Counted from the stretch's first letter, positions 1 to 9,806 are shown. The stretch is DNA of 64,000 nt from an uncultured Erythrobacter sp. (GCA_947504155.1 CANNGF010000004.1:4081-68080); one strand, 5' to 3'. Notes: a model not told the origin generated them from the sequence alone. Numbers and translations: made by a program.

Positions 1-322
1 TCAATCAACCCGGCATGACATGCTTCGGACGTCATTCGAATGGAATGAGGTCGAATTCCAAATGACGGAACTGGCGCTTTTCATCTGGCGAGATCGTGGC
101 GTGCTGACGGTTCCGAATTGCCAGCTATATCTGCCCGCCGGATCAGAACGCGCGTGGCTTGCATCGGCGGAGACTTCGCCAAGGATGTTCCGCTTGGAGG
201 CAAATGGTGTCGTTTGCACTGATACGGTTCCCGAAGATATCGAGGCCGGAAAGGGCAGGGCGGTATCGCGCTTTCAGTCCCTCCTACCCCATGACGAACT
301 GCGGAGCGATCATTGGACGTAG
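1..322 (+). CDS. Hypothetical protein, 5' truncated by the window edge
   Basis: The frame is open from base 2 (QSTRHD-MLRTSFEW...) to TAG at 320-322. No recognisable motif. Confidence 0.5.
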   Translation, partial: QSTRHDMLRTSFEWNEVEFQMTELALFIWRDRGVLTVPNCQLYLPAGSERAWLASAETSPRMFRLEANGVVCTDTVPEDIEAGKGRAVSRFQSLLPHDELRSDHWT

Positions 323-393
323 GGCGCGCTCAGTATTAGTATGCGAAGCTGGACTATCGTGGCGCAAATTGCCGTTGGGTCCCAAAAGCCATT

Positions 394-500
394 ACGGCAG
401 CTTTGCGCCCCAATCTCGGTCGTTCAAGCCTGCTCTTATTTTTCCCAAAAGCTGCCGTTGATTGAGCGGCGGCTTTGCGTCCCGATTATTGTCGTTGAAG
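394..500. repeat. Island spacer repeat cluster A: two direct ~35-bp units plus an 11-bp inverted repeat
   Basis: 394-428 ACGGCAGCTTTGCGCCCCAATCTCGGTCGTTCAAG and 466-500 GCGGCGGCTTTGCGTCCCGATTATTGTCGTTGAAG match at 26/35 ungapped. ACGGCAGCTTT (394-404) is inverted as AAAGCTGCCGT (448-458). Confidence 0.75.
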
Positions 501-630
501 TAGGAAAAGCTTAAGCCCGAATTTGGCCATCCGTTCAGACACCAACTGCGGTTGGGTTGGCATCGCGAATGATTGGAGTTTCCGCTAGTAGACCTGAGTA
601 AGTAGGATCGCGTAAGCGCCGGTGCAACAA

Positions 631-3600
631 TCAGTCGTCTGCGCGCGGCCAACGCGCCCGCCCACGCCCCTTGCGGATCACATCCACAACTCGCGTGCCC
701 TCAACGACGATACCTGCAATCAGGCTTGGCTGCTGATCATTGATCGGCTTGACGAACGGCGCGACCGGCTGAAAATCCGGCGTCATCAGCCAAGTTCGCC
801 CATCGCCAGCCGCGTTGGCCACGACGCGATAGGGACCTGGCTCCGGCGGCTCATCAATGTCCAGTCGCCGTTTGAAGGATGCCGACGTCCATTTCTGGGC
901 GCCACCAGCGAGTGCCTCCGCCCGGAACCGCTTCCAGAGCTCGGCAGTGTCCGCGTTCGGCCATTCCCCCCCGTCGGTCAGAACGGCAATCTCGTTGCTC
1001 TCAAGCCAAGCTCGCATTTCGGCCGGGGTTACGAAATTGGGATCTGTCGCTTCAATTGCGGCGATCGCCGCACGGCGAGACGGCAATCCAGCACGGATCA
1101 ACATCGACATCATGAAGCGCGGCACGCCAGTCTCCAGCGCGGCCGCACCACCACCGGCGACGATCTCCGGCTCCCAGCCGAGACTGGCGCGGCGCGTGCG
1201 GATCGCCTCCAGCGCCCAGACCAGCCGATACATGAAGGCATCCTCGATAACGCGCATATGATGCGGACCGATCTCGGAAACTTCGGCGCCGGACACCCAT
1301 TGCTTGAGCAGCGCTCGCCAGTTTCCGGGCAGCGCGTTGCGCTTGTCGGGAATGAAGGGCCTCATCACCAGCAAGTGCTCCGCGAGACCCGCCAGAGCCT
1401 CGGCGAGCGCATCGGCATCGCCGGACAGCGACGCCAGATCGGCCTGGTCAACCAGCACGCCGAGATCAGCTGCCATGGCATCGATCTTCAATCCGGCCTC
1501 GAGCCCGACGCCCATCGCGAAATGGCCGCGCCGGACCTCTGGCGTGGTTACGGACCAGATGAGATTGGCGCGGGCTTCGAGCACCAGGCGATGCGCCTTC
1601 TCGATTTCCTCGCCCTCCCGACCAATCTGGCGAGCCCATAGCGATCCGGTCAGCGCCTGGTCGATCAGTGCAGGCAAATCCGCTTGGTCGGCATCGAGTG
1701 CTTCGATGAGGCCGAACACCGTGGCGTCGAGCCGTTCAACCAATTGCGACAACGGCTCTTCGTCGATCGCGTCGCTATCGTCCTCGCCGCCGCTCTCATC
1801 CTCGCCATCATCGTCGGCGGCGACAGCGACATTGTCGTCATCTGCGTTGGGCAGCGGCGCCGGTGCGTCGGCCTCCTCATCCACCGACCGCCAGGCTTCG
1901 CGGGCGTTGGCAAGATACTCAAAGGCATCCTCGCGATCGAGCACGCCCTCGCGGCCGAGGCGATCGAGAATCTCCGCGACAATCTGAATTAGGCCGCTCT
2001 TGAGCGTCCGAGCCTTGGACGACTGGACAAGTTTGCGCCATTCCCCCCGGCGGCGTGCGACCTTGTCGTAGGCGACATGCGCGATCAGCCCCTCGACATC
2101 GACGAAAGCGCGTCCGGCCCGTCCTGCGACATTGGCAAATTCCTCGCCGCCGATGATCTCGCCGGACCTGACGAGCGCCGGGACCAGCAGAACCGCCGCA
2201 TTGAGGTTCAAACCCTGCGAGAGAGTTGGAGAGGCCACGATCACCTTCAGCACACCTTCGGCCAAAAGCACTTCGAGCTCGCGCAGGAATGGGCTTGGCA
2301 AGCGACCGTGATGGATCGCCACACCGATCTTCAGGCAAGCGACCGCTGGGTGTTCCTCGCCGAGCCATTCGGCGCCCACCTCAAGCGCGCGGGAAATGGC
2401 TGCCTCGTCATCGAGCAGGGAGCTGAGATAGCCCTTCCGCACGAACATGCAGGCTTGCTTGCCATAGCCTTCGACCCAATTGGCCTGGGTGCAGAAGATC
2501 AGGGTGCGTTTTCCCTGCGCGGCGAACTCCCAAGCCGCGAACAGCGCGAGTTGTGCGGCCTTGCGCGGATAGGGCTTGCGATCCGGCTTGATCGCCGCCT
2601 TCTCCGTCACAAAGCCGTCGATGAACGGCACATTCTCATTGAGGTCGAGCGTTAGCCTCGCTTCGGTCTGCGCGGCATTCCAAGCGAGGAAACCGTAGCG
2701 CTGACGCGTCGGGCGCCAATCGCTCCGAACGGCTTCGCCGGACTGGTCGCTGCGAATCCATGCGGTCAGATCGTCCAGCTCGGCGCCGCTTGGCAGGATC
2801 GCCGAGAGGCAGACGATGCGACGGCTCGCTGCGTCCGACCGCAGCAACAGCCGCTGGACCAATGTCTCGAAGCGGATCTCGCGTTCGCTCGGGCCAATCA
2901 TATGGCCTTCATCGAGAACTATCAGGCCAACATCGTCGATCAATCCCGGATCGTTGCGTAGCGCGAAGTCGAGCTTTTCGGGGGTGGCGATTATGATCTC
3001 GCGAGACCGCAGTGCATCTTCGTCGCCGCTAGATACTCCGCTCGCCCCATAGAGCGACGACACGCTGAAGCCGAGCGGCGCGAAAGTGCGGCGAAAGGAC
3101 CGCTCCGTTTGGGCGGACAAGGCTCGCAGTGGCGTGACGAGCAGCACGCGGCGTCCGGTCGAGAGCGTCATCAGCGCGGCGATCTCGGCAACACGGGTCT
3201 TGCCGGCGCTGGTCGGCAGTGACACCACCAGATCATCGGTGAGGTCGGTCGACCGGTGCGCAGCATCCCGCTGTGAGGGCCAAAGTTCCACCTCCGCGGT
3301 GCCGCGCGCGTATAGCAGACCGATGAACAGGTCGCGCAGCTCAAGATATCGCTCGGCGCCGCCTTCGGGCGGTTCGACCGGTAGGGTGCGGTGAAACGAA
3401 TGTTCCCACAGATCGTCGATCACATGGCGGCAGAGGGCGATCGTCCACCAGAGCGAGACCATGCCGGCATTGTCTGCGATTCGCCCGGCGGTTGCGAGCA
3501 GGTCGCGGGCGTCCTGGATGAGCTTATCGTCACCCGTCTGCAGCCCGAAGTCGAAATAAGCGACGGCTCGGCAAATTGTGCCGTTTAGGATGATGGCGAA

Positions 3601-4161
3601 GGTCTCGTCCAGGTCGCCATCATCGGCATCAGCGAGCGCGGCGGCTATGGACTCGTCGTCCACATCGTCGCCGGCCAGCCACTCGCGGATATAGACGCGA
3701 AGTCGGTCGAGATCGCGCAGGATCAGCAGCTTGATCGCCACTTCTCCCGGCGCGAAGTTGAGATCGTCGGGTGCTTCGCTGAACAGTGAATAGGCCACTG
3801 CGGAGTAGCCGGCGAGATGATAGGCCGCCGCCGCCAATGTTCTGTGGAAGCCGAGATCCTTGTCTTCTGGATTCGCGTTGCGGCCCAGTGCTTCGAACGC
3901 CGTAGCGGCGCGATAGAAGCCTTGACCCGACAAAGGCGTCGAGCCTTCCAGCGATCGTAGCGCGAGCGATGCGCGTAGCACCGCGAAGCCATGTTCGGCG
4001 AGATCGGTCTCGATCGTCGCGCCGAGCGGTGGAGCGTCCGCGGGGAGCACGCCGTCGGCACGCATGAGCGACCACGCCGTTCCCCTGGAGTTGATCTGGC
4101 CCCAGACACCGGGCCGCGTCGCCGTCTTGAGAAAGCCGCGCAGTTCTTCAATCGTCTCCAA
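631..4161 (-). CDS. hamB: Hachiman anti-phage SF2 (Ski2-like DEAD/DEAH) helicase HamB
   Basis: Walker A LPTSAGKT, Walker B LDEGH, IHHG, ASPTLSQGLN and NVAGRAGR motifs; directly downstream of a DUF1837-like gene. Probable TTG start at 4161 behind GGAGG; the track start is 4179. Confidence 0.88.
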   Translation of the reverse strand: METIEELRGFLKTATRPGVWGQINSRGTAWSLMRADGVLPADAPPLGATIETDLAEHGFAVLRASLALRSLEGSTPLSGQGFYRAATAFEALGRNANPEDKDLGFHRTLAAAAYHLAGYSAVAYSLFSEAPDDLNFAPGEVAIKLLILRDLDRLRVYIREWLAGDDVDDESIAAALADADDGDLDETFAIILNGTICRAVAYFDFGLQTGDDKLIQDARDLLATAGRIADNAGMVSLWWTIALCRHVIDDLWEHSFHRTLPVEPPEGGAERYLELRDLFIGLLYARGTAEVELWPSQRDAAHRSTDLTDDLVVSLPTSAGKTRVAEIAALMTLSTGRRVLLVTPLRALSAQTERSFRRTFAPLGFSVSSLYGASGVSSGDEDALRSREIIIATPEKLDFALRNDPGLIDDVGLIVLDEGHMIGPSEREIRFETLVQRLLLRSDAASRRIVCLSAILPSGAELDDLTAWIRSDQSGEAVRSDWRPTRQRYGFLAWNAAQTEARLTLDLNENVPFIDGFVTEKAAIKPDRKPYPRKAAQLALFAAWEFAAQGKRTLIFCTQANWVEGYGKQACMFVRKGYLSSLLDDEAAISRALEVGAEWLGEEHPAVACLKIGVAIHHGRLPSPFLRELEVLLAEGVLKVIVASPTLSQGLNLNAAVLLVPALVRSGEIIGGEEFANVAGRAGRAFVDVEGLIAHVAYDKVARRRGEWRKLVQSSKARTLKSGLIQIVAEILDRLGREGVLDREDAFEYLANAREAWRSVDEEADAPAPLPNADDDNVAVAADDDGEDESGGEDDSDAIDEEPLSQLVERLDATVFGLIEALDADQADLPALIDQALTGSLWARQIGREGEEIEKAHRLVLEARANLIWSVTTPEVRRGHFAMGVGLEAGLKIDAMAADLGVLVDQADLASLSGDADALAEALAGLAEHLLVMRPFIPDKRNALPGNWRALLKQWVSGAEVSEIGPHHMRVIEDAFMYRLVWALEAIRTRRASLGWEPEIVAGGGAAALETGVPRFMMSMLIRAGLPSRRAAIAAIEATDPNFVTPAEMRAWLESNEIAVLTDGGEWPNADTAELWKRFRAEALAGGAQKWTSASFKRRLDIDEPPEPGPYRVVANAAGDGRTWLMTPDFQPVAPFVKPINDQQPSLIAGIVVEGTRVVDVIRKGRGRARWPRADD

Positions 4162-4927
4162 GGTTTTCCACCTCCTCATAGACCTCGGCGATAAAGTCCT
4201 GATGATCCTGAATCCGCAGATTGACGGCGAATTGCCGGCGGGCGGTGCTGGCCGCGTCGAGATCTGCCTTCAGGGCGGCCGGCGGCGCATTGCCCGATAG
4301 GGTGAACAGCATATGGTCGATGCGGGCATGCGGGACTGCCTCAAGCCCGACCTCGTCGCGGATCAGCCGACCGAGCGCGACATCATCCTCGTCGTCGCTT
4401 TCCAGCAGCAACTTGGCGACGAACAACAATGAACCGGGCGTGCAGCGCCCATTGTCGCGGTTCAGAACCTCGCGCGCCTTGGTGATGGTGGACTGGTTCA
4501 GATTGGCGGCACTCTTGGCTTCACCCTTGAGTAGCCAGAGCTTGCCACTCTCGCTCTCGCCCACGCCGATGAAATCGTCGCCGCGCATAGCCATTTCGCG
4601 GCCGTCCTTGTAGCGCAGGCGCCGCACGGGAACGCGAAGATCAACCATCTCTTCGACAAGCTCGGTTGCGACAATCTCGCCCAGATCGCCCGAACGTCCC
4701 TTCTTGCCCTGGGGCAGTTCGGCATTCAGGATCTTGGCGGCAGCCTTGTATCCCAGCCGCTCCACATCGGCGGCGATATGTTCGAGCCGATCGTAATGGG
4801 AGCGAACGGTTTCGATCAGGCTGTCGCGAACCTTCTCGCGACCATCTGCCTTCTCGACGAGCGTCCAATAAGACCGCCGTCCGTTTGCGTCGACCGTCCG
4901 GTCGCACCAACTCTTAAAAAGCGCCAC
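4148..4927 (-). CDS. hamA: Hachiman HamA (DUF1837-like PD-(D/E)xK nuclease)
   Basis: RSGDLGEI...RGDD...GEAKS motif series typical of HamA/DUF1837; 259 aa; stop overlaps the helicase start. Confidence 0.85.
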   Translation of the reverse strand: MALFKSWCDRTVDANGRRSYWTLVEKADGREKVRDSLIETVRSHYDRLEHIAADVERLGYKAAAKILNAELPQGKKGRSGDLGEIVATELVEEMVDLRVPVRRLRYKDGREMAMRGDDFIGVGESESGKLWLLKGEAKSAANLNQSTITKAREVLNRDNGRCTPGSLLFVAKLLLESDDEDDVALGRLIRDEVGLEAVPHARIDHMLFTLSGNAPPAALKADLDAASTARRQFAVNLRIQDHQDFIAEVYEEVENLGDD

Positions 4928-5143
4928 AAAACCCCCCGGGGATTACCTGTATACGCAATGCCAACCGCTTTGTCGCGCTACTGTGGTCGAATTACAGAAA
5001 CGCGTATCAGGCAAAGTATTATGTCACCGCAATATCGCCACCAGCGCGCAAAACAGATCGTCGAGCGCAGAGTAGCTGTTTACGCCTGCAGGCTGCTCTG
5101 GCAACCGTTGGCTCTCAAATTGCGCAGATTAGAGAGCCAGCAC

Positions 5144-5292
5144 AAATGGCAGCCTTTCGTAAGATTTACCTAAGGGTCGCAAGTCCGCTTTCGTCCCACT
5201 TTGCGCCGGTCATTCGCTCGCTAAGTGGAGGGTGCTTTCAGCAGTGACGAATGGGTGCTTCGATGGCCGAGATTAGGGTGGGAAGCGGACGT
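5144..5292. repeat. Island spacer repeat cluster B, an imperfect ~110-bp palindrome
   Basis: Reverse complement of 5258-5292 (ACGTCCGCTTCCCACCCTAATCTCGGCCATCGAAG) matches 394-428 at 25/35 ungapped. Arms GTCCGCTTTCGTCCCAC (5183-5199) and GTGGGAAGCGGAC (5278-5290); inner CATTCG/CGAATG pair. Confidence 0.75.
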
Positions 5293-5299
5293 CTGATGA

Positions 5300-5623
5300 C
5301 TATGTGGCGCGAGGTCCAAACAGGATGATAGTAGCACCGATGAGACAGACGCTCGCGCCAATCATGTCCCACCTGTCTGGCTTGGCGCCTTCGACGATCC
5401 ATAGCCAAGCAATTGCCGAGACGATGTAAACACCGCCATAGGCTGCGTAAGTTCGGCCCGCATGTTCAGCTTCAACAAGCGTGAGCAAATAGGCGAAGAG
5501 AGCCAAGGCTATCATGCCCGGAACAACCCACCAGACCGACTTATCTAAGCGCAACCATGCCCAGAATGCGAAGCAACCTGCGATTTCAGCTATCGCTGCT
5601 CCGATGTATGCGAAGGCGGTCAT
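5300..5623 (-). CDS. ynfA: YnfA/UPF0060 family small multidrug-resistance-like membrane protein
   Basis: 107 aa, four hydrophobic segments; [24 protein letters not shown] and PDRWD motifs of YnfA. Confidence 0.9.
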
Positions 5624-5646
5624 GCCCTTCGTTCGCAGCTAAATTG

Positions 5647-5725
5647 AACATCCGCAATTGCGTCGTTGGGCGAACGACGGCTTTCCGCCTTTGTCGCATT
5701 GGAAGCTGACGGTCTGGAAGCGGCC
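5647..5725. repeat. Island spacer repeat cluster C
   Basis: AACATCCGCAATTGCGTCGTTGGGCGA followed by ACGACGGCTTTCCGCC (5674-5689; 13/16 to the start of unit 394-428). Internal CGTCGTT/AACGACG hairpin; GGAAGCGG core near 5716-5723. Confidence 0.6.
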
Positions 5726-5736
5726 CAGAATTGGAC

Positions 5737-6162
5737 TCAGTTTGTAGTGGAGACCCTTCCTGTTGCTTCGCGGATATCTTGCTCTGAATAGGGCGGTTCA
5801 GTGACATTTTGACCTGGCCGGTAATCTGGATGTTCACCGCACTTAACCCACCGTCCTTCGCCGATTTCGCCAGGACACCAGCCGCGTTTTTCCAAATCTA
5901 TTAAAAGTTTTCGCCTATTATTACATGCTCGCATTGTTTCCGGGGCGTCGCCGTGCCCACCTCGGCAGCGCGCATTCTCAGAGGCCGCCCTTTTCATTAA
6001 GGATTTGACCTTCAAGGCGCCTTTGCCAATGCCGATATCTCCATCGGCTGCGCTTTGGTCTACGACGGTGCTTTTTCTGTGACGCAACTGGTCCTGCTCC
6101 TCCGGACCGCAACTTGCCATGAGCACGAGCGGTAAGATGAGGGCTGCAAAATCTCCGCGCAT
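5737..6162 (-). CDS. Cys-rich hypothetical lipoprotein
   Basis: 141 aa; hydrophobic signal ending in lipobox-like LMASC; CRGGHGD...C...GWC...C pattern. Confidence 0.65.
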   Translation of the reverse strand: MRGDFAALILPLVLMASCGPEEQDQLRHRKSTVVDQSAADGDIGIGKGALKVKSLMKRAASENARCRGGHGDAPETMRACNNRRKLLIDLEKRGWCPGEIGEGRWVKCGEHPDYRPGQNVTEPPYSEQDIREATGRVSTTN

Positions 6163-6186
6163 ACAAACAAATTGTCACATTCTCTT

Positions 6187-6391
6187 GATGTCTGCAATGG
6201 GGTCTATTGTGTTGAAAAACTCCGCAGGCACCTTCGGCGGGAAATATTAAAACTCATAAGAGCTCATGCCTGCATCATTACCTCAAGACACCTTCTCCCG
6301 TTGGATCATTATTACGGAAAATCGGCTGCGGATCGGGTCAGGCCGAGTTTTTCAACACAATAGGGTCGTAAGCCGAATGGCTCCTTCGCGC
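6187..6391. repeat. Island spacer repeat cluster D, interrupted by a MITE-like insertion
   Basis: Removing 6205-6362 and one GGGTC restores GATGTCTGCAATGGGGTCGTAAGCCGAATGGCTCCTTCGCGC, colinear with cluster C at 27/42. Confidence 0.65.
6205..6362. mobile_element. 158-bp non-autonomous MITE-like element
   Basis: Perfect 18-bp TIRs TATTGTGTTGAAAAACTC (6205-6222) and GAGTTTTTCAACACAATA (6345-6362), flanked by GGGTC direct repeats (6200-6204, 6363-6367). Alternative reading: 19-bp TIR with a GGT duplication. Confidence 0.8.
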
Positions 6392-6441
6392 GTCAGGACC
6401 GCCAGGAGAAGACGGTCAGCTAACGGCCCCGTTCTTGGCTC

Positions 6442-8553
6442 TCAGGCTGACTTCTTTCGCCGTCCTCTGCGTGCACCGTGGCGTTGGCGCTCCAGCGGAC
6501 GCAACCTCAGTGGCCTTTGCTCGATATGTGCGGTCAGGAACGAGAGATGTTGGAGGGCGGCGAGTTTATCTCCCAGTTCGGCCTCCTCGTCGTAGGTCTG
6601 CTCGGTCTCGGTATTTCCTTCGTGTCCGAAGATGTCACAGCGGACACTATCGGCAACCTTTCCTTTCAGGATCGTGGTGCACAACCCCCGGTAGCTGTGC
6701 ACATTTTTGTCGATCCAGGCCCCCTTGTTTCGATGTCGCCATTCGGTGCCTTCAGGAAACGCCCACGCGCGCAGCTTATTAAACACTGACTTCCTAAAGG
6801 TGTCGGCAAAGCTTTTGGCTTTCGGAGCCTTCATTTCCGGAAACAGATATGTGTGACCAAGGCCTCGCATCTCACGAACATAATCGATGAAGCCGAGGCG
6901 AATAAGTTCAGGATGAATTGGCAGCTTACGGATGGACTGAACGTTCTTCAGATCGCGATCTTCAGTGTAGTCGATCTGCATGAATGGGATTGGGTCATCT
7001 TCATGCACATCCGCCAGCCGCAGTCCGGCTAGTTCGGAACTCCGGCCACCATAGAGCGGCAGCATTAATGGTAGATAATACCAAGCGTCGTGAAAAATCT
7101 CGTCGCCAGCGCTCAGGCGATCGTCCAGGCTTGCTGAACCGGACCACACCGGGGCGTTCAGGATGTGACAAACCTCTTCCTTGGTCCAGTTCGCCCGCAG
7201 GTCGCGCTTGCGCTTTGCTTTCCGGCCGCCATTCTTCGTCAGCGTTGCGCGAGCCGATCTAAAATCGAGAGGTTCTGCTGTCTTATGGCCACCGCCCTCC
7301 GCGCTTGAGCTAAACTCGATGACCTTCCCGATCCAAGTCAGGTGCTTGTTCATCGTTTTCTGGCTGATGCCGAGTTCGGATGCGGGCATCTCTTTCGCCC
7401 GCTCCAAACTGGCTGGGAAGCCATGCTCGCGTTCGGCAGTGGTGCGACCCCAACGATTGGGGAGGGCCCGGCACAGCGCCTTGAATTTCGACACACTTTC
7501 TTGACCGATGTCTTCAACTTTGATGTTCCCACCGCAAGCGAAGTCGAACATCGCGATAGCTGTTCGAACCTGCTTGATAGTGTCGGGGCTCCAGCCATCT
7601 TCGTAAGAGGCCGCCGCGATGCAATCTTCAGCGGCCGTTTTCAGCAGCTTGGTATTGGCGACCTCGGCCTTTGAGCGCTGAGCAGGAGCCTTGGTTTCAG
7701 CAGCCAAATCAGCTGTTTTGGGCGAAGCTTTTTGGGCGTATTCCTTTTGCGGCTCTCTACCAGCCTCTTCATAACAAGCGGATGATTCAACTGGCTCGGG
7801 CGTAATCGGCGTCGGCTCAGTAGCATGCGCCTCATCGTCGGTCTCTTGCTCGTCAGGTCCACTGGCCGCAGGTTCGGAGCTTGTCTCATAGGCGAGGGGG
7901 GAATCGTCCCGAAGAGCCTCGTCGATCCAATCTCGGAAATCGAACCTGCTATCCGGCAATTGTCGTGAAGCCTCCCGGCAAGCAGCCGCTCGCGCCTCAT
8001 AGATCAGGCGCTGCAGCTTTTCGAGGTTTGAGCGAGTCGGGGTGATTCCGAAGCTGGAGGCGTAGTCGTCGATTTGACGCTTCGATACTTCGATCTGTCC
8101 CCGGCGCTCATGACACAACATTGCGACGCACGATGCATCATTCGCAGACCAGCCTTGCGCTAGGAGATCGTCGAAGTGATCTGGAGTAAAATCGGCATTA
8201 ATTCCGCGACGGGCGCGGATGTCCCAGAACTCCGCGAAGACTCGATTGACGCGCGTGTCTTCGGCCGGATCGCCGCCTCCTCCGATCTGATCTGTCAAGA
8301 TACGGTTCAATTGGACTCGCAGCGCGTCCTTGAACACACCCTTCATTTGATCGGGACGGATCGCTAATCCAACACTTCCATACGACATGACCAAGTTCCT
8401 CGCCTGAACCTCCAGACGAGCCATAATATCACACGCAGTTCTATAGTTGCCAGTGCAAAGTGAGAACGAAACAGAAACGGGTGTTCCGGCAAGGGTGAAC
8501 TTGCGGCGCCAGTGATAGGATCCACCGCGAAGGCGAAGATTGGTAATCGTCAT
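6442..8553 (-). CDS. Large tyrosine recombinase/integrase with DUF6538-like N-terminus (~703 aa)
   Basis: Catalytic series GGRSSE(R), HSYR (H-x-x-R), FGHE (H) and QTY (Y). N-terminus MTITNLRLRGGSYHWRRK. ATG at 8553 with GGAG upstream; the track start is 8637. Confidence 0.9.
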   Translation of the reverse strand: MTITNLRLRGGSYHWRRKFTLAGTPVSVSFSLCTGNYRTACDIMARLEVQARNLVMSYGSVGLAIRPDQMKGVFKDALRVQLNRILTDQIGGGGDPAEDTRVNRVFAEFWDIRARRGINADFTPDHFDDLLAQGWSANDASCVAMLCHERRGQIEVSKRQIDDYASSFGITPTRSNLEKLQRLIYEARAAACREASRQLPDSRFDFRDWIDEALRDDSPLAYETSSEPAASGPDEQETDDEAHATEPTPITPEPVESSACYEEAGREPQKEYAQKASPKTADLAAETKAPAQRSKAEVANTKLLKTAAEDCIAAASYEDGWSPDTIKQVRTAIAMFDFACGGNIKVEDIGQESVSKFKALCRALPNRWGRTTAEREHGFPASLERAKEMPASELGISQKTMNKHLTWIGKVIEFSSSAEGGGHKTAEPLDFRSARATLTKNGGRKAKRKRDLRANWTKEEVCHILNAPVWSGSASLDDRLSAGDEIFHDAWYYLPLMLPLYGGRSSELAGLRLADVHEDDPIPFMQIDYTEDRDLKNVQSIRKLPIHPELIRLGFIDYVREMRGLGHTYLFPEMKAPKAKSFADTFRKSVFNKLRAWAFPEGTEWRHRNKGAWIDKNVHSYRGLCTTILKGKVADSVRCDIFGHEGNTETEQTYDEEAELGDKLAALQHLSFLTAHIEQRPLRLRPLERQRHGARRGRRKKSA

Positions 8554-8568
8554 CGAATGCGCTCCCTT

Positions 8569-8589
8569 TGGGAACAGCGATGGGAACAG
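8569..8589. repeat. 9-bp direct repeat TGGGAACAG x2 between the integrase start and the tRNA
   Basis: Exact copies at 8569-8577 and 8581-8589 (12-bp period). Confidence 0.6.
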
Positions 8590-8652
8590 GTTTGGGGACA
8601 AACCTACCCGACCGCTGAGAGGACCGCCTATTTTCAATGACTTAGATGGAAT

Positions 8653-8729
8653 TGGTCGGGGAGAGAGGATTCGAACCTCCGGCCCCTGCCTCCCGAAGAC
8701 AGTGCTCTACCAGGCTGAGCTACTCCCCG
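8653..8729 (-). tRNA. tRNA-Pro (anticodon CGG)
   Basis: CGGGGAGTAGCTCAGCCTGGTAGAGCA-CTGTC-TTCGGGA-GGCAG...GTTCGAATC...CTCCCCGACCA; 77 nt, CCA encoded. Confidence 0.97.
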
Positions 8730-8774
8730 ACCGGATGCGTGGCGGAGGTGATCCCTCCGCGAGGCAGAGGCGGC

Positions 8775-8803
8775 CCTATAGGTGTGGATTGTCTAACACG
8801 CAA
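8775..8803 (-). promoter_or_regulatory. Putative sigma70 promoter of tRNA-Pro
   Basis: TTGCGT-N17-TATAGG on the minus strand, about 45 bp upstream of the tRNA. Confidence 0.6.
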
Positions 8804-8858
8804 GCGCGCTTTTGCAGGTTTTTGCACCTAATACCGATGCTCGTTGAACGAGTACTCT

Positions 8859-9806
8859 ATGACCTCCGAAAAACCTCATTTCGAACAGCAATATCTCGAT
8901 CTCATGCGGCAGATCTGGCTCGAGGGTGACGAGCGGCTGGACCGTACCGATGTAGGTACGAGGTCGATTTTCGGTGCGACATTGCGGTTTGACCTCGCCG
9001 AGGGGGCTATGCCGCTGATCACGACGAAGAGAGTATACTGGAAAACTGCCACTCGCGAATTGCTGTGGTTCCTTACCGGTAACACCAATATCCGTCCGTT
9101 GGTCTTGCAGGGGGTGAAAATCTGGAACGAATGGCCGCACGCGCGCTATGTCGAGCAGTCTGGCGATAAAATTACTCTCGACCAATTTGTGATGCGAATA
9201 GCTGATGATGAAGCGTTTGCCGCAAAATGGGGCGATCTGGGTCCGGTGTATGGCAAGCAATGGGTCGATTGGCCGACCTATGACCCGGTCGAAGGAGGGC
9301 TTTTTCGCAGAGGTCGCGGTATCAATCAGGTTGCCGAGGTAATTGAATCCCTGCGTTCAAATCCCGGCAGTCGTCGTCATATAATCGAGGGCTGGAACGT
9401 AGCAGATGTCCCCCGCATGGCCCTTCCGCCCTGCCACAAAACCTATCAATATCATGTGTCGACCTGTCTGGATGGAAAGCCCTATCTCAACGGTATTCTC
9501 TATCAGCGAAGTTGCGATGTCGCTCTGGGCCTGCCGTTCAATCTCTGGTCGGGCGCACTTTTATTGAGAATGATTGCGCAACAAGTAGATATGCAGCCTG
9601 GGGAGTTTGTGTGGATGGGCGGTGATACGCACCTTTATCTCAATCACGAGCATTTGGTGACGGAGCAGCTTTCCAGAGAACCACGCGGCCTTCCAGCGCT
9701 CGAAATCACCCGGCAGCCGGAAACGATATTCGACTATCGGATAGAAGATTTCGCGGTGAAGGATTATACCCCACACGAACCTATCAAGGCTCCGGTTGCG
9801 GTCTGA
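8859..9806 (+). CDS. thyA: Thymidylate synthase
   Basis: DRTDVGT, RMALPPCH (catalytic Cys), YQRSCD, GLPFN and GDTHLY motifs. Confidence 0.97.
   Translation: MTSEKPHFEQQYLDLMRQIWLEGDERLDRTDVGTRSIFGATLRFDLAEGAMPLITTKRVYWKTATRELLWFLTGNTNIRPLVLQGVKIWNEWPHARYVEQSGDKITLDQFVMRIADDEAFAAKWGDLGPVYGKQWVDWPTYDPVEGGLFRRGRGINQVAEVIESLRSNPGSRRHIIEGWNVADVPRMALPPCHKTYQYHVSTCLDGKPYLNGILYQRSCDVALGLPFNLWSGALLLRMIAQQVDMQPGEFVWMGGDTHLYLNHEHLVTEQLSREPRGLPALEITRQPETIFDYRIEDFAVKDYTPHEPIKAPVAV

Follow-up and report, generated by a model that had tools for sequence, protein, structure and literature searches.

A mosaic intergenic repeat at the cargo seams of a tRNA-Pro island in Erythrobacter: an apparently undescribed repeat family of Sphingomonadales mobile DNA

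Outside integrons, the movement of cargo between the slots of genomic islands, integrative and conjugative elements (ICEs) and plasmids is largely unexplained. In Neisseria, the Neisseria intergenic mosaic elements (NIMEs)/dRS3 and the 'minimal mobile elements' form repeat-bounded slots between conserved genes, which hold alternative cassettes and undergo horizontal exchange. Bacterial interspersed mosaic elements (BIMEs) are join-points of recombination and targets of insertion sequences (IS). On Acinetobacter plasmids, pdif (XerC/D) modules are discrete modules with short recombination sites that are found in many contexts, with no integron. Among known mobilisable elements, there are islands that carry an integrase and cis-acting sites, and no matching relaxase. 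Here, we analyse the spacers between cargo genes beside the integrase of a tRNA-Pro island from an uncultured Erythrobacter sp. (GCA_947504155.1), within a window of 64,000 nucleotides (the whole stretch of DNA under analysis; C4:4081-68080 of the source genome, the contigs of which are denoted C1-C4). In these spacers we find members of a mosaic intergenic repeat family that appears to be undescribed and that belongs to the mobile DNA of Sphingomonadales. Judging from sequence comparison, we give about an even chance to the interpretation that it is a junction element similar to BIMEs, NIMEs and the Rhizobium intergenic mosaic elements (RIMEs), acting as portable homology for module exchange; comparison of strains shows cargo swapped at the repeats, albeit probably not by the neighbouring integrase.

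Repeat units in the spacers and breakpoints of cargo modules

A first-pass annotation of the window had proposed the gene order ORF, hamB-hamA, ynfA, lipoprotein, tyrosine integrase and tRNA-Pro, with one repeat family in all of the spacers. The coordinates obtained with PADLOC and Pfam agree with this order (Table 1). The spacers are denoted A (between ORF1, the last gene ahead of the cargo seams, and the Hachiman operon hamB-hamA), B (between this operon and ynfA), C (between ynfA and the lipoprotein-like gene) and D (between the latter gene and the integrase). All four proved to carry members of one mosaic family.

The repeat unit was defined from iterative nhmmer searches seeded with spacer A, which found 24 full copies on contigs C1-C4. 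Overall, the genome contains 24-25 copies of the family, all of them intergenic, with a mean column identity of 62%. The basic unit of ~70 nt consists of an L arm (GTCNGCTTT; consensus G(G/T)CNGCTTT), the core GCGCCC(C), which reads GCGCCC(C)AAT and then YTCGGTCRTTC, a 17-nt spacer that is variable in sequence and constant in length, and an R arm (CCCGAAAGCNGAC) with, beyond it, a CGTTCA tail of looser conservation; the two half-sites are ~54 bp apart. In the ungapped alignment of the genomic copies, the invariant columns are exactly GCGCCC. There are also tandem forms, as well as composite forms (denoted J), in which arms and boxes are ordered and oriented differently. The reverse complement of the J motif TGGGCCG(A/G)AAGCGGAC is an L arm plus core (GTCCGCTT(T/C)CGGCCCA); thus, the five plus-strand boxes of the window point in one direction. 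With a caret at the division within the core, these boxes are A1 ACGGCAGCTTTGCG^CCCCAAT, A2 GCGGCGGCTTTGCG^TCCCGAT, B' AGTCCGCTTTCGT^CCCA, C GGTCTGGAAGCGG^CCCAGAAT and D GGTCAGCTAACGG^CCCCGTT. As the annotation had stated, the repeats lack the RYYYAAC/GTTRRRY cores of attC sites, their own cores being GCGCCCC and CGGCCCA.

We used a covariance model (CM) built from the 24 genomic copies and a position weight matrix (PWM) that represents the L arm plus core. In profile searches, A1 and A2 alone score strongly. The CM scan of the 64-kb window gave no match at E<0.2 beyond A1, A2 and B, in line with the earlier statement that there are no copies in the core part of the window (8.7-64 kb). The pairwise similarities that had been noted were reproduced, with 76% identity between 395-428 and 467-500 and 72% between 394-429 and the reverse complement of 5257-5292. 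In spacer B, the inverted unit is a relic that keeps the L arm and the box (5260-5290), with the core decayed to CCCACCC. Spacers C and D are not significant singly and are recognisable only through alignment with junction sites elsewhere: once a 153-bp insertion is removed from D, the two spacers align with one another as well as with foreign junction sites, with an invariant GGGCCG and the R-arm and box motifs. An nhmmer search with the junction from metagenome contig L036 (J3) found spacer C genome-wide at E=9.5e-5 and spacer D at E=0.24.

Of the units, which had been described as imperfect hairpins, A1 folds better than its shuffles (z=-2.3); A2, B, C and D do not. The pairing of L and R arms was compared to that of shuffled partners, and the values were 61.7% versus 62.2% for the 24 own copies, and 72.9% versus 72.2% for 90 copies from other genera. 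A conserved hairpin was rejected, because arm pairing equals that of the shuffled controls and the arms show no covariation. No consensus structure of the units was predicted by RNAalifold, and only the tRNA was found in an Rfam scan of positions 1-9000 at E<=1. Most copies have neither a U-tract nor a stable hairpin.

Strain-level comparisons were made from exact-protein look-ups, and the contigs and loci used for comparison, metagenome contigs among them, are numbered with L. ORF1, ynfA, the lipoprotein gene and the integrase were each found at 89-100% identity beside different neighbours, and homology ends at the repeat core. According to the annotation, the repeats bound the cargo units, and the test set beforehand was whether strain breakpoints fall within the repeats. 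They do so at 4/4 spacers, all of which we consider to be seams because the comparisons of contexts (those of ynfA, of the lipoprotein gene, of L044 and of L055/L045) break there.

The ynfA module, i.e., ynfA with flanking repeat pieces, is the clearest example of a discrete mobile segment. It is 98.5-99.3% identical on L033-L036, which share nothing else with the window, over 536-546 bp (488 bp on L034, where it is cut at the contig end), and the relic of spacer B, which lies within the module, is present on L033, L035 and L036. There are at least four upstream contexts and at least three downstream contexts. Upstream of ynfA are the lipoprotein gene (the window), a 169-aa gene with AlpA and primase genes (L033), an HTH_17 gene and a P4-type integrase (L035), and other DNA (L036). 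On L035, a distance of 26 nt separates the P4-type integrase from a 50-nt fragment that matches, with full identity, a probable tRNA gene of the source genome; ARAGORN called no tRNA on this contig. Downstream of ynfA are hamA (the window), a cluster of major facilitator superfamily (MFS) and TonB-receptor genes (L033-35) and an acetyltransferase gene (L036), and in these three different contexts the segment ends at box B'. Among species representatives, ynfA reaches no more than 84% identity (<=84%), which argues for a recent movement of the module. Exact matches of ynfA in Joint Genome Institute (JGI) metagenomes numbered 0.

On the other side of box C, tRNA-Pro, the integrase and the lipoprotein gene are shared with contigs L040-L043 at 98.3-99.8% identity; past ATTCTGGGCCG these contigs continue with other DNA, and ynfA is absent. 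The contexts that share ynfA and those that share the lipoprotein gene overlap only in the 7-nt CGGCCCA of box C. At box D, the homology to L055 (89% DNA identity in the integrase gene) ends at window position 6415, inside the box; past it are unrelated genes, and the lipoprotein gene is absent. L045 has an integrase of 81% identity at the same thyA/tRNA-Pro site, followed by an MmeI-type restriction cluster; a single unit separates two of its cargo genes. The cargo of L045-L054 consists of 821-aa and 498-aa proteins of unknown family (no PADLOC match) with a unit between them, and then of an MmeI-type restriction-modification gene.

In spacer A, L044 is 100% identical to C4:3816-4505, a block of 690 bp that comprises ORF1 and the 5' half of A1. 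The breakpoint is after GCGCCCCAAT, at window position 425; then L044 continues with another unit half and another gene, and this right side is unrelated. Seams C and D are bounded on both sides, with the crossover within a few bases at the core, G^CCC. For seams A1 and B', only one side of the interval is bounded, and both are compatible with that crossover point. For the Hachiman operon itself, the nearest relatives are 72% identical and belong to other genera; relatives of more than 72% identity, which were sought for mapping the operon's own ends, were not found. To the left of the ORF1 block, the neighbouring gene is only ~78% identical to that of L044, and this edge, lying in ordinary homology, looks like the end of a homologous-recombination tract. 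A strong GC-rich hairpin (GATGCCCGCGGGATG...CATCCCGCGGGCATC), likely a terminator, occupies C4:3820-3860, just ahead of the window, at the left edge of the identical block.

Table 1. Positions of genes, repeat elements and modules at the island end of the window (CM, covariance model; PWM, position weight matrix)
Feature	Position	Strand	Description
ORF1, 3' part	2-322	+	157 aa, no family match; start upstream of the window at C4:3929
Unit A1	392-463	+	L arm ACGGCAGCTTT, core GCGCCCCAAT, spacer, R arm CCCAAAAGCTGCCGT; CM 56.7 bits, E=1e-16; PWM 42.4 bits
Unit A2	465-537	+	Tandem, more degenerate; CM 33.7 bits, E=1.8e-9; PWM 26.1 bits
Hachiman operon (cargo module 1)	631-4927	-	hamA + hamB
hamB	631-4179	-	PADLOC HamB, E=0
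hamA	4148-4927	-	PADLOC HamA, E=6.6e-102
Box B'	5181-5197	+	AGTCCGCTTTCGT^CCCA; Hachiman/ynfA seam; R-arm PWM 12.1 bits, minus strand
ynfA module (cargo module 2)	5182-5731	-	Discrete mobile segment, ynfA + flanking repeat pieces
Inverted unit relic, spacer B	5235-5290	-	CM 11.2 bits, E=0.02; PWM 21.7 bits
ynfA	5300-5623	-	Pfam, 2.5e-34
Spacer C, composite J	5624-5736	-	Plus-strand box GGTCTGGAAGCGG^CCCAGAAT, 5711-5731; lipoprotein/ynfA seam
Lipoprotein-like gene (cargo module 3)	5737-6162	-	141 aa, no family match
Spacer D proper, composite J	6358-6441, continuing 6163-6204	-	Starts 11 nt past the integrase stop; PWM 9.5 bits
Miniature inverted-repeat transposable element (MITE), 153 bp	6205-6357		Terminal inverted repeat TATTGTGTTGAAAAACTC, 18-nt inverted ends, GACCC 5-bp target duplication; in the spacer D box
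Box D	6404-6424	+	GGTCAGCTAACGG^CCCCGTTC
Large tyrosine recombinase (island integrase)	6442-8556	-	704 aa, divergent, DUF6538 type
tRNA-Pro(CGG)	8653-8729	-	Integrase-side anchor; thyA next, plus strand

Distribution of the family in the genome and among taxa

Within the genome, 24/24 copies are intergenic; the 3' end of a gene faces the unit in 18/24 cases, and 11/24 units lie between convergent genes. A scan for repeats of tRNA 3' ends identified eight att-delimited tRNA islands, which make up 8% of the genome. Four of these eight islands contain 11/24 units (P ~8e-7), and the islands also contain 12/23 intergenic strong boxes and 8/11 good J sites. In the islands other than that of the window, box orientation is mixed. 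Outside the islands, units are found among accessory genes, which were read by eye as ArdC, a SIR2-like protein, a nucleotide cyclase, an RHS toxin and IS.

All same-genus relatives (18/18) are positive, with 1-24 copies each, and over all genomes copy number ranges from 1 to 25. In a family-wide sample at E<=1e-5, 149/251 genomes and 86/112 genera were positive, and thus a genus-specific element is ruled out; in 12 genomes from other families of the order, there were 0 with the repeat. The exact 20-mer GCTTTGCGCCCCAATYYCGG occurs at 91 places in species-representative genomes, and the 80 places listed are overwhelmingly in Sphingomonadales, the genera including Qipengyuania, Erythrobacter, Croceicoccus, Pontixanthobacter, Parasphingorhabdus, Sphingomonas, Blastomonas and Stakelama. 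A few full units were found in other Alphaproteobacteria. One full unit in Chelatococcus (53.6 bits) may represent a transfer outside the order. Full units are also present on contigs labelled as a Synechococcus metagenome-assembled genome (MAG) and as Segeticoccus (the set of L069, L123 and L108), and these are probably contaminating sphingomonad contigs.

The neighbourhoods of the units are diverse. Among the 12 same-genus genomes with at least seven units, seven have no homologue of the DUF6538-type integrase at E<=1e-10. In a Qipengyuania plasmid, a unit is located 34 nt past an ordinary 400-aa integrase. Of the Ti-type traA-traCD loci that were fetched, 7/11 have a unit directly after traD. 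In the Blastomonas plasmid pBSY18_4, a unit is located between traA-DUF6118 and a Hachiman pair of another subtype, and in a third Hachiman locus, from another genus, a unit is just upstream. Since it is seen after integrases, after traD and at the traA-DUF6118/Hachiman joint, the element marks joints between backbone and cargo generally.

These observations bear on two statements of the annotation. The supposed tie of the repeats to DUF6538-like integrases or tRNA-Pro islands is not upheld, given that they are found on all contigs, in 86/112 genera, and on plasmids beside tra genes. The converse outcome, a genome-wide spread regardless of integrases as in repetitive extragenic palindromic (REP) elements, which had been named as counting against an integrase-run system, was found in part: the units are dispersed and independent of this integrase, but they are strongly concentrated in mobile islands.

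In six further regions of the genome, a tRNA gene marks one boundary and a direct repeat of this gene (at least 17 nt) the other: C1:587658-680489, C2:619586-649465, C3:26920-90511, C1:178753-184958, C2:40624-52691 and C2:467393-477522. One of the six is a tandem pair at tRNA-Met. A PF00589 integrase match is present in 5/6 of these regions, and none was found in C2:40624-52691. The tRNA-Ser island contains four units and five J sites. A non-coding block of 140-190 nt, 84-93% identical among its copies at C3:48179-48350, C2:994642-994835, C2:970677-970817 and C1:594831-594904, precedes alpA-like (HTH_17) genes; in every case it adjoins a unit, on the L-arm side, and it may be a shared promoter or operator.

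The tRNA-Pro island, its integrase and candidate enzymes

The view of the locus as a tRNA-anchored integrase island stands with respect to its architecture, with the integrase at the 3' end of the tRNA gene and a repeat of 21 nt on the far side. The size needs revision, being ~42.6 kb and not 8.4 kb. The 3' 21 nt of tRNA-Pro (8652-8672) have one further copy in the genome; this copy, at C3:634245-634265, is not part of a tRNA gene. The end of C3 (663921-664120) and the start of C4 (1-110) carry the same 34-nt tandem repeat (GCCTCCGCGCCGAAAGGGCGTCGCTCCGGCACCA), from which it follows that the two contigs abut; their boundary is an assembly break inside the island. The size estimate follows from the far-side repeat and this contig join. 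According to the PWM, the repeat boxes are confined to the 8.4 kb beside the integrase, and the other ~34 kb of the island are essentially box-free.

A relaxase gene is located outside the window, ~1.4 kb upstream of the ORF1 start; the protein is of the MobA/VirD2 type (PF03432 with TraI_middle and LPD7). Translations of the rest of the island (C3:634245-664120 and C4:1-4400) were read by eye and included a cbb3 oxidase (ccoNOP/G/I), FixL/FixK-like regulators, an alternative oxidase, a truncated globin and ion antiporters. Type IV secretion genes were not seen, on which account the island looks like a mobilisable fitness island.

The window integrase has a sub-threshold match to DUF6538 (14.6 bits) and no match to PF00589 (Phage_integrase); the R..HxxR..H..Y motifs were read from the translation of its C-terminal part. 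Homologues of 30-99% identity are common in Sphingomonadales, e.g., Croceicoccus hydrothermalis (88%), Stakelama (64%) and many Sphingomonas (~60%). Some of them carry PF20172 together with PF00589, and the source annotation of the gene is integrase. In 6/6 homologous loci with the upstream flank available, tRNA-Pro adjoins the integrase gene. This integrase would insert the whole ~42.6-kb island into tRNA-Pro, and it would not be required for module exchange. Boxes or units follow the integrase stop in all seven loci examined, which contain the integrase or a homologue of 30-91% protein identity (the window, L014, L016, L020, L045, L055 and a second copy in genome G002, the last by coordinates alone). 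A full unit lies 0-120 nt past the stop in 3/11 integrase homologues of the genus (L014, L016 and L020), with a fourth by coordinates (G002:C20), and an inverted box lies 11 nt past the stop in L045, L055 and the window. The window genome also has 11 ordinary integrase genes, ten of them with an ORF call, and 2/10 are followed by boxes, weak ones only.

The MITE in spacer D does not belong to the repeat family. Its inverted repeat extends over 22 nt at 95%. The empty site is found on L042 and L043 as GGCTTACGACCC^CATTGC (the caret marks the insertion point), which is itself a repeat box, and a copy of 98% identity occurs in another genus (G188:C6:132061-132221). The same MITE/IS end is inserted in a unit at C1:589376, and an ORF beside that unit (C1:587926-589375) reads by eye as an IS5/IS1182-type transposase, a probable parent IS of the MITE. 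The core box has thus been hit twice by IS/MITE insertion, and the repeat's GCGCCCC/ACGACCCC box appears to be the target of the MITE.

Several enzyme families were considered in relation to the units. Searches for the REP-associated transposase RAYT (PF01797) gave 0 matches in the window's own genome and gave matches in control genomes; a REP/RAYT system was rejected on this ground. The family also differs from the tens to hundreds of near-identical palindromes (20-40 nt) that such systems scatter through core intergenic DNA. The IS91/ISCR transposase (PF04986) is absent except in one relative, and rolling-circle ends of the IS91/ISCR type were rejected accordingly. With respect to relaxases, the window genome has one PF03432, that of the tRNA-Pro island, and 0 PF03389 (MobA_MobL); 5/13 unit-rich genomes have neither PF03389 nor PF03432. 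A candidate chromosomal dif, CGATGTGATAATATATATTATGTTAAAT, is located at ~C1:277.5 kb on the minus strand and is the only match in the genome to E. coli dif with <=8 substitutions. The units bear no similarity to this dif-like site, and Xer/pdif was rejected.

The published consensus of MOBQ oriT is NWACCNNTAAGTGCGCCCTYNN, with the nick-region consensus TAAGTGCGCCCTY (PMC3832669). The unit core, (T/A)(T/A)GCGCCC(C/T), matches the MOBQ consensus over 7-8 nt, and variants of the unit read CTAAGCGCCCT and CTAAGCGCCCTA/C. The Ti-type oriT-like sequence of the genus is ACGTATAAGCGCGCCCTC. In the traA-traC gap of relatives (L166, L167, L173-L176 etc.), there is a conserved oriT-like sequence, ACGTCGGCACGACGTATAAGCGCGCCCTC, with an inverted repeat and then a MOBQ-like nick core. 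Beside traA, the canonical oriT-like sequence occupies the traA-traC gap and the unit is located after traD. An inverted repeat 5' of the putative nick of the units is slightly enriched, with a mean best stem of 4.4 nt versus 3.9 nt in shuffled sequences (p=0.002-0.014), and stems of at least 6 bp occur in 9-14% of copies. A classical oriT was rejected, since the unit lies outside the traA-traC gap and has a weak inverted repeat upstream. Literature searches on DUF6538, on the unit sequence and on REP elements in Sphingomonadaceae found nothing.

Explanations of module exchange and comparison with known systems

The best-supported explanation is that modules are exchanged at shared boxes, most simply by recombination. 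The elements are intergenic at gene 3' ends, where the backbone (integrase, traD, traA operon) meets the cargo (Hachiman, ynfA, restriction systems). In encounters of related islands or plasmids, the module between two repeats would be swapped, added or deleted by recombination at these repeats. There are two conceivable routes: (i) RecA-dependent recombination on the conserved box of ~20-30 nt, or (ii) homology-facilitated illegitimate recombination anchored in a neighbouring conserved gene; in either case, the elements would spread with the modules they flank. The family is independent of any one enzyme, because the integrase family and both relaxase families are each missing from several unit-rich genomes and there is no RAYT and no IS91. 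Some observations weigh against passive portable homology. The invariant core, the fixed spacing and the near-identical 20-mers across dozens of genera represent more constraint than a passive homology patch needs. At seams C and D, the crossover falls in the same few core bases, which would equally be expected of a site-specific enzyme. There is no homology among the flanks outside the ynfA module, so that homologous recombination would be limited to boxes of 15-30 nt, a length near the lower limit for RecA-dependent exchange. Exchange is deduced here from the comparison of sequences. The conservation of the core, together with the convergence of the seams on it, leaves real room for a dedicated enzyme.

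Such a strand-transfer enzyme would cut the invariant core (GCG^CCCC; CGG^CCCA in the J forms) and release or transfer the module between boxes. The candidates are enzymes that nick and rejoin DNA in the HUH manner, e.g., a MOBQ-like conjugative relaxase acting from box to box, or another recombinase; circularisation would restore a whole site, and joined module ends would show the circular or tandem junction GTCAGCTTTGCG^CCCCAAT. We consider it rather unlikely that modules (defence operons, ynfA, integrase, DNA-transfer (Dtr) genes) are cut and rejoined at GCG^CCCC in this way, possibly by a MOBQ-like relaxase acting in trans during conjugation. The idea draws on the limitation of the invariant columns to exactly GCGCCC, which resembles the MOBQ consensus and the oriT-like sequence of the genus, on the position of seams C and D at the core, with the other two compatible and a 7-nt overlap (CGGCCCA) at seam C, and on the arrangement of the five window boxes as direct repeats on the plus strand. 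The fixed place of units beside traA-traCD modules (7/11 loci), the MobA/VirD2-type relaxase on the island, and the uncoupled L and R arms, which are expected of hybrid units, point in the same direction. Conversely, the genome with 24-25 units has no MobA_MobL and one PF03432, and five unit-rich genomes have neither; the unit follows traD and is not in the traA-traC gap; enrichment of an inverted repeat just 5' of the putative nick is marginal; the boxes of other islands have mixed orientations; and the match to the MOBQ core covers only 7-8 nt, with a nick position that we take to be after GCG. If true, single modules would be released, transferred and re-inserted at any site, in a cassette system that is neither integron nor pdif, and this would explain both why unrelated islands hold modules of 99-100% identity and why the site is conserved in more than 80 genera. 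The enzyme proposed by the annotation was the neighbouring DUF6538-type tyrosine integrase, which would capture and shuffle cassettes at the repeats in an integron-like manner. The seams at repeats, the first of which is 11 nt past the integrase stop, the boxes or units after the stop in seven integrase loci and the co-orientation of the five boxes in the array are consistent with this proposal, as is the 7-nt overlap of seam C, given that the crossover region of tyrosine recombinases is ~7 nt. However, units are abundant where the integrase family is absent, and they are also found on plasmids, next to tra genes and in islands that have P4-type integrases, and the ynfA module is also found beside another integrase type. 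The left sides of the junctions are not conserved, so that a second binding arm is missing; the units show neither an attC-like fold nor covariation; and the rest of the 42.6-kb island has no sites. In view of units in integrase-free genomes and with other integrases and the lack of an attC-type hairpin, a cassette system run by this integrase is not supported, and we regard it as very improbable.

The coincidence of breakpoints and repeats could also arise because both are located at gene ends. According to this explanation, which we find unlikely, the repeats are cis-acting boundary elements for the expression of modules, i.e., terminators, insulators, REP-like protectors of mRNA 3' ends, or sites for a conserved DNA-binding protein. 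Their location directly after stops (of the integrase, traD, ORF1, ynfA and the lipoprotein gene) and their enrichment between convergent genes would be expected of such elements; the conservation of sequence and not of pairing, with half-sites ~54 bp apart, suits a protein site, and four units adjoin the conserved 140-190-nt block upstream of alpA-like genes. On the other hand, most copies have neither a U-tract nor a stable hairpin, Rfam gave no match, and the explanation does not account for the loss of homology between contexts so close to the core, within a few bases at each of four seams and not just anywhere in the spacers. The position at seams would likewise be incidental if the family were a decaying non-autonomous transposable element, similar to MITEs or REPINs, as the dispersed, intergenic copies with inverted arms, and a genuine MITE in the same spacer, might suggest. 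This is the least credible of the explanations: no target duplications and no pair of empty and filled sites were seen for the ~70-nt unit, the copies are ~62% alike within the genome and yet the core is invariant across genera, there is no RAYT or IS91, copy number is low, and the core lies at 4/4 seams.

With module exchange by recombination at shared boxes as the preferred explanation, the closest counterparts are the BIMEs and REPs of enterobacteria and the RIMEs of Rhizobium. These are likewise short, imperfectly palindromic intergenic mosaics of variable order and orientation, are restricted to one taxon, are found at the 3' ends of genes or where two genes converge, and attract IS insertions. 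By contrast, the family described here is of low copy number (1-25 and not hundreds), has no RAYT and is concentrated in islands and plasmids, not spread over the core genome; its conserved part is a 30-nt box with the GCGCCC core and not a stem, and the arms show no covariation. Integrons share with this locus an array beside a tyrosine recombinase, single-gene or operon cargo that includes defence genes, recurring cassettes and a conserved short core. The locus differs from them in the absence of attC cores or fold and of an IntI-type integrase, in the orientation of the integrase, which is co-directional with the cargo genes, on the same strand, and not divergent, and in that the sites are common without an integrase. 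It differs from pdif modules in that the dif-like site of the genome is unlike the units. The MOBQ oriTs and orphan oriT mimics are similar in that the core GCGCCCY matches the consensus and units lie beside Ti-type traA-traCD; they differ from the units, which occur in many copies per island at a non-canonical position, with a weak upstream inverted repeat and no co-distribution with the relaxase families tested.

The conserved and easily recognised junction element marks cargo slots across a bacterial family, and Hachiman systems of two subtypes are found beside it, on an island, on a plasmid and on the chromosome of another genus. Should the core be cut by a dedicated enzyme, this would be a new cassette system. 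If plain recombination is responsible, the BIME/NIME idea would be extended to mobile DNA, and the element would serve as a practical marker of cargo slots in Sphingomonadales. The comparison with Neisseria is instructive in this respect: exchange there involves transformation and homology of flanking genes in the core chromosome, whereas here the slots are on integrative and conjugative DNA, and the breakpoints fall in the repeat itself.

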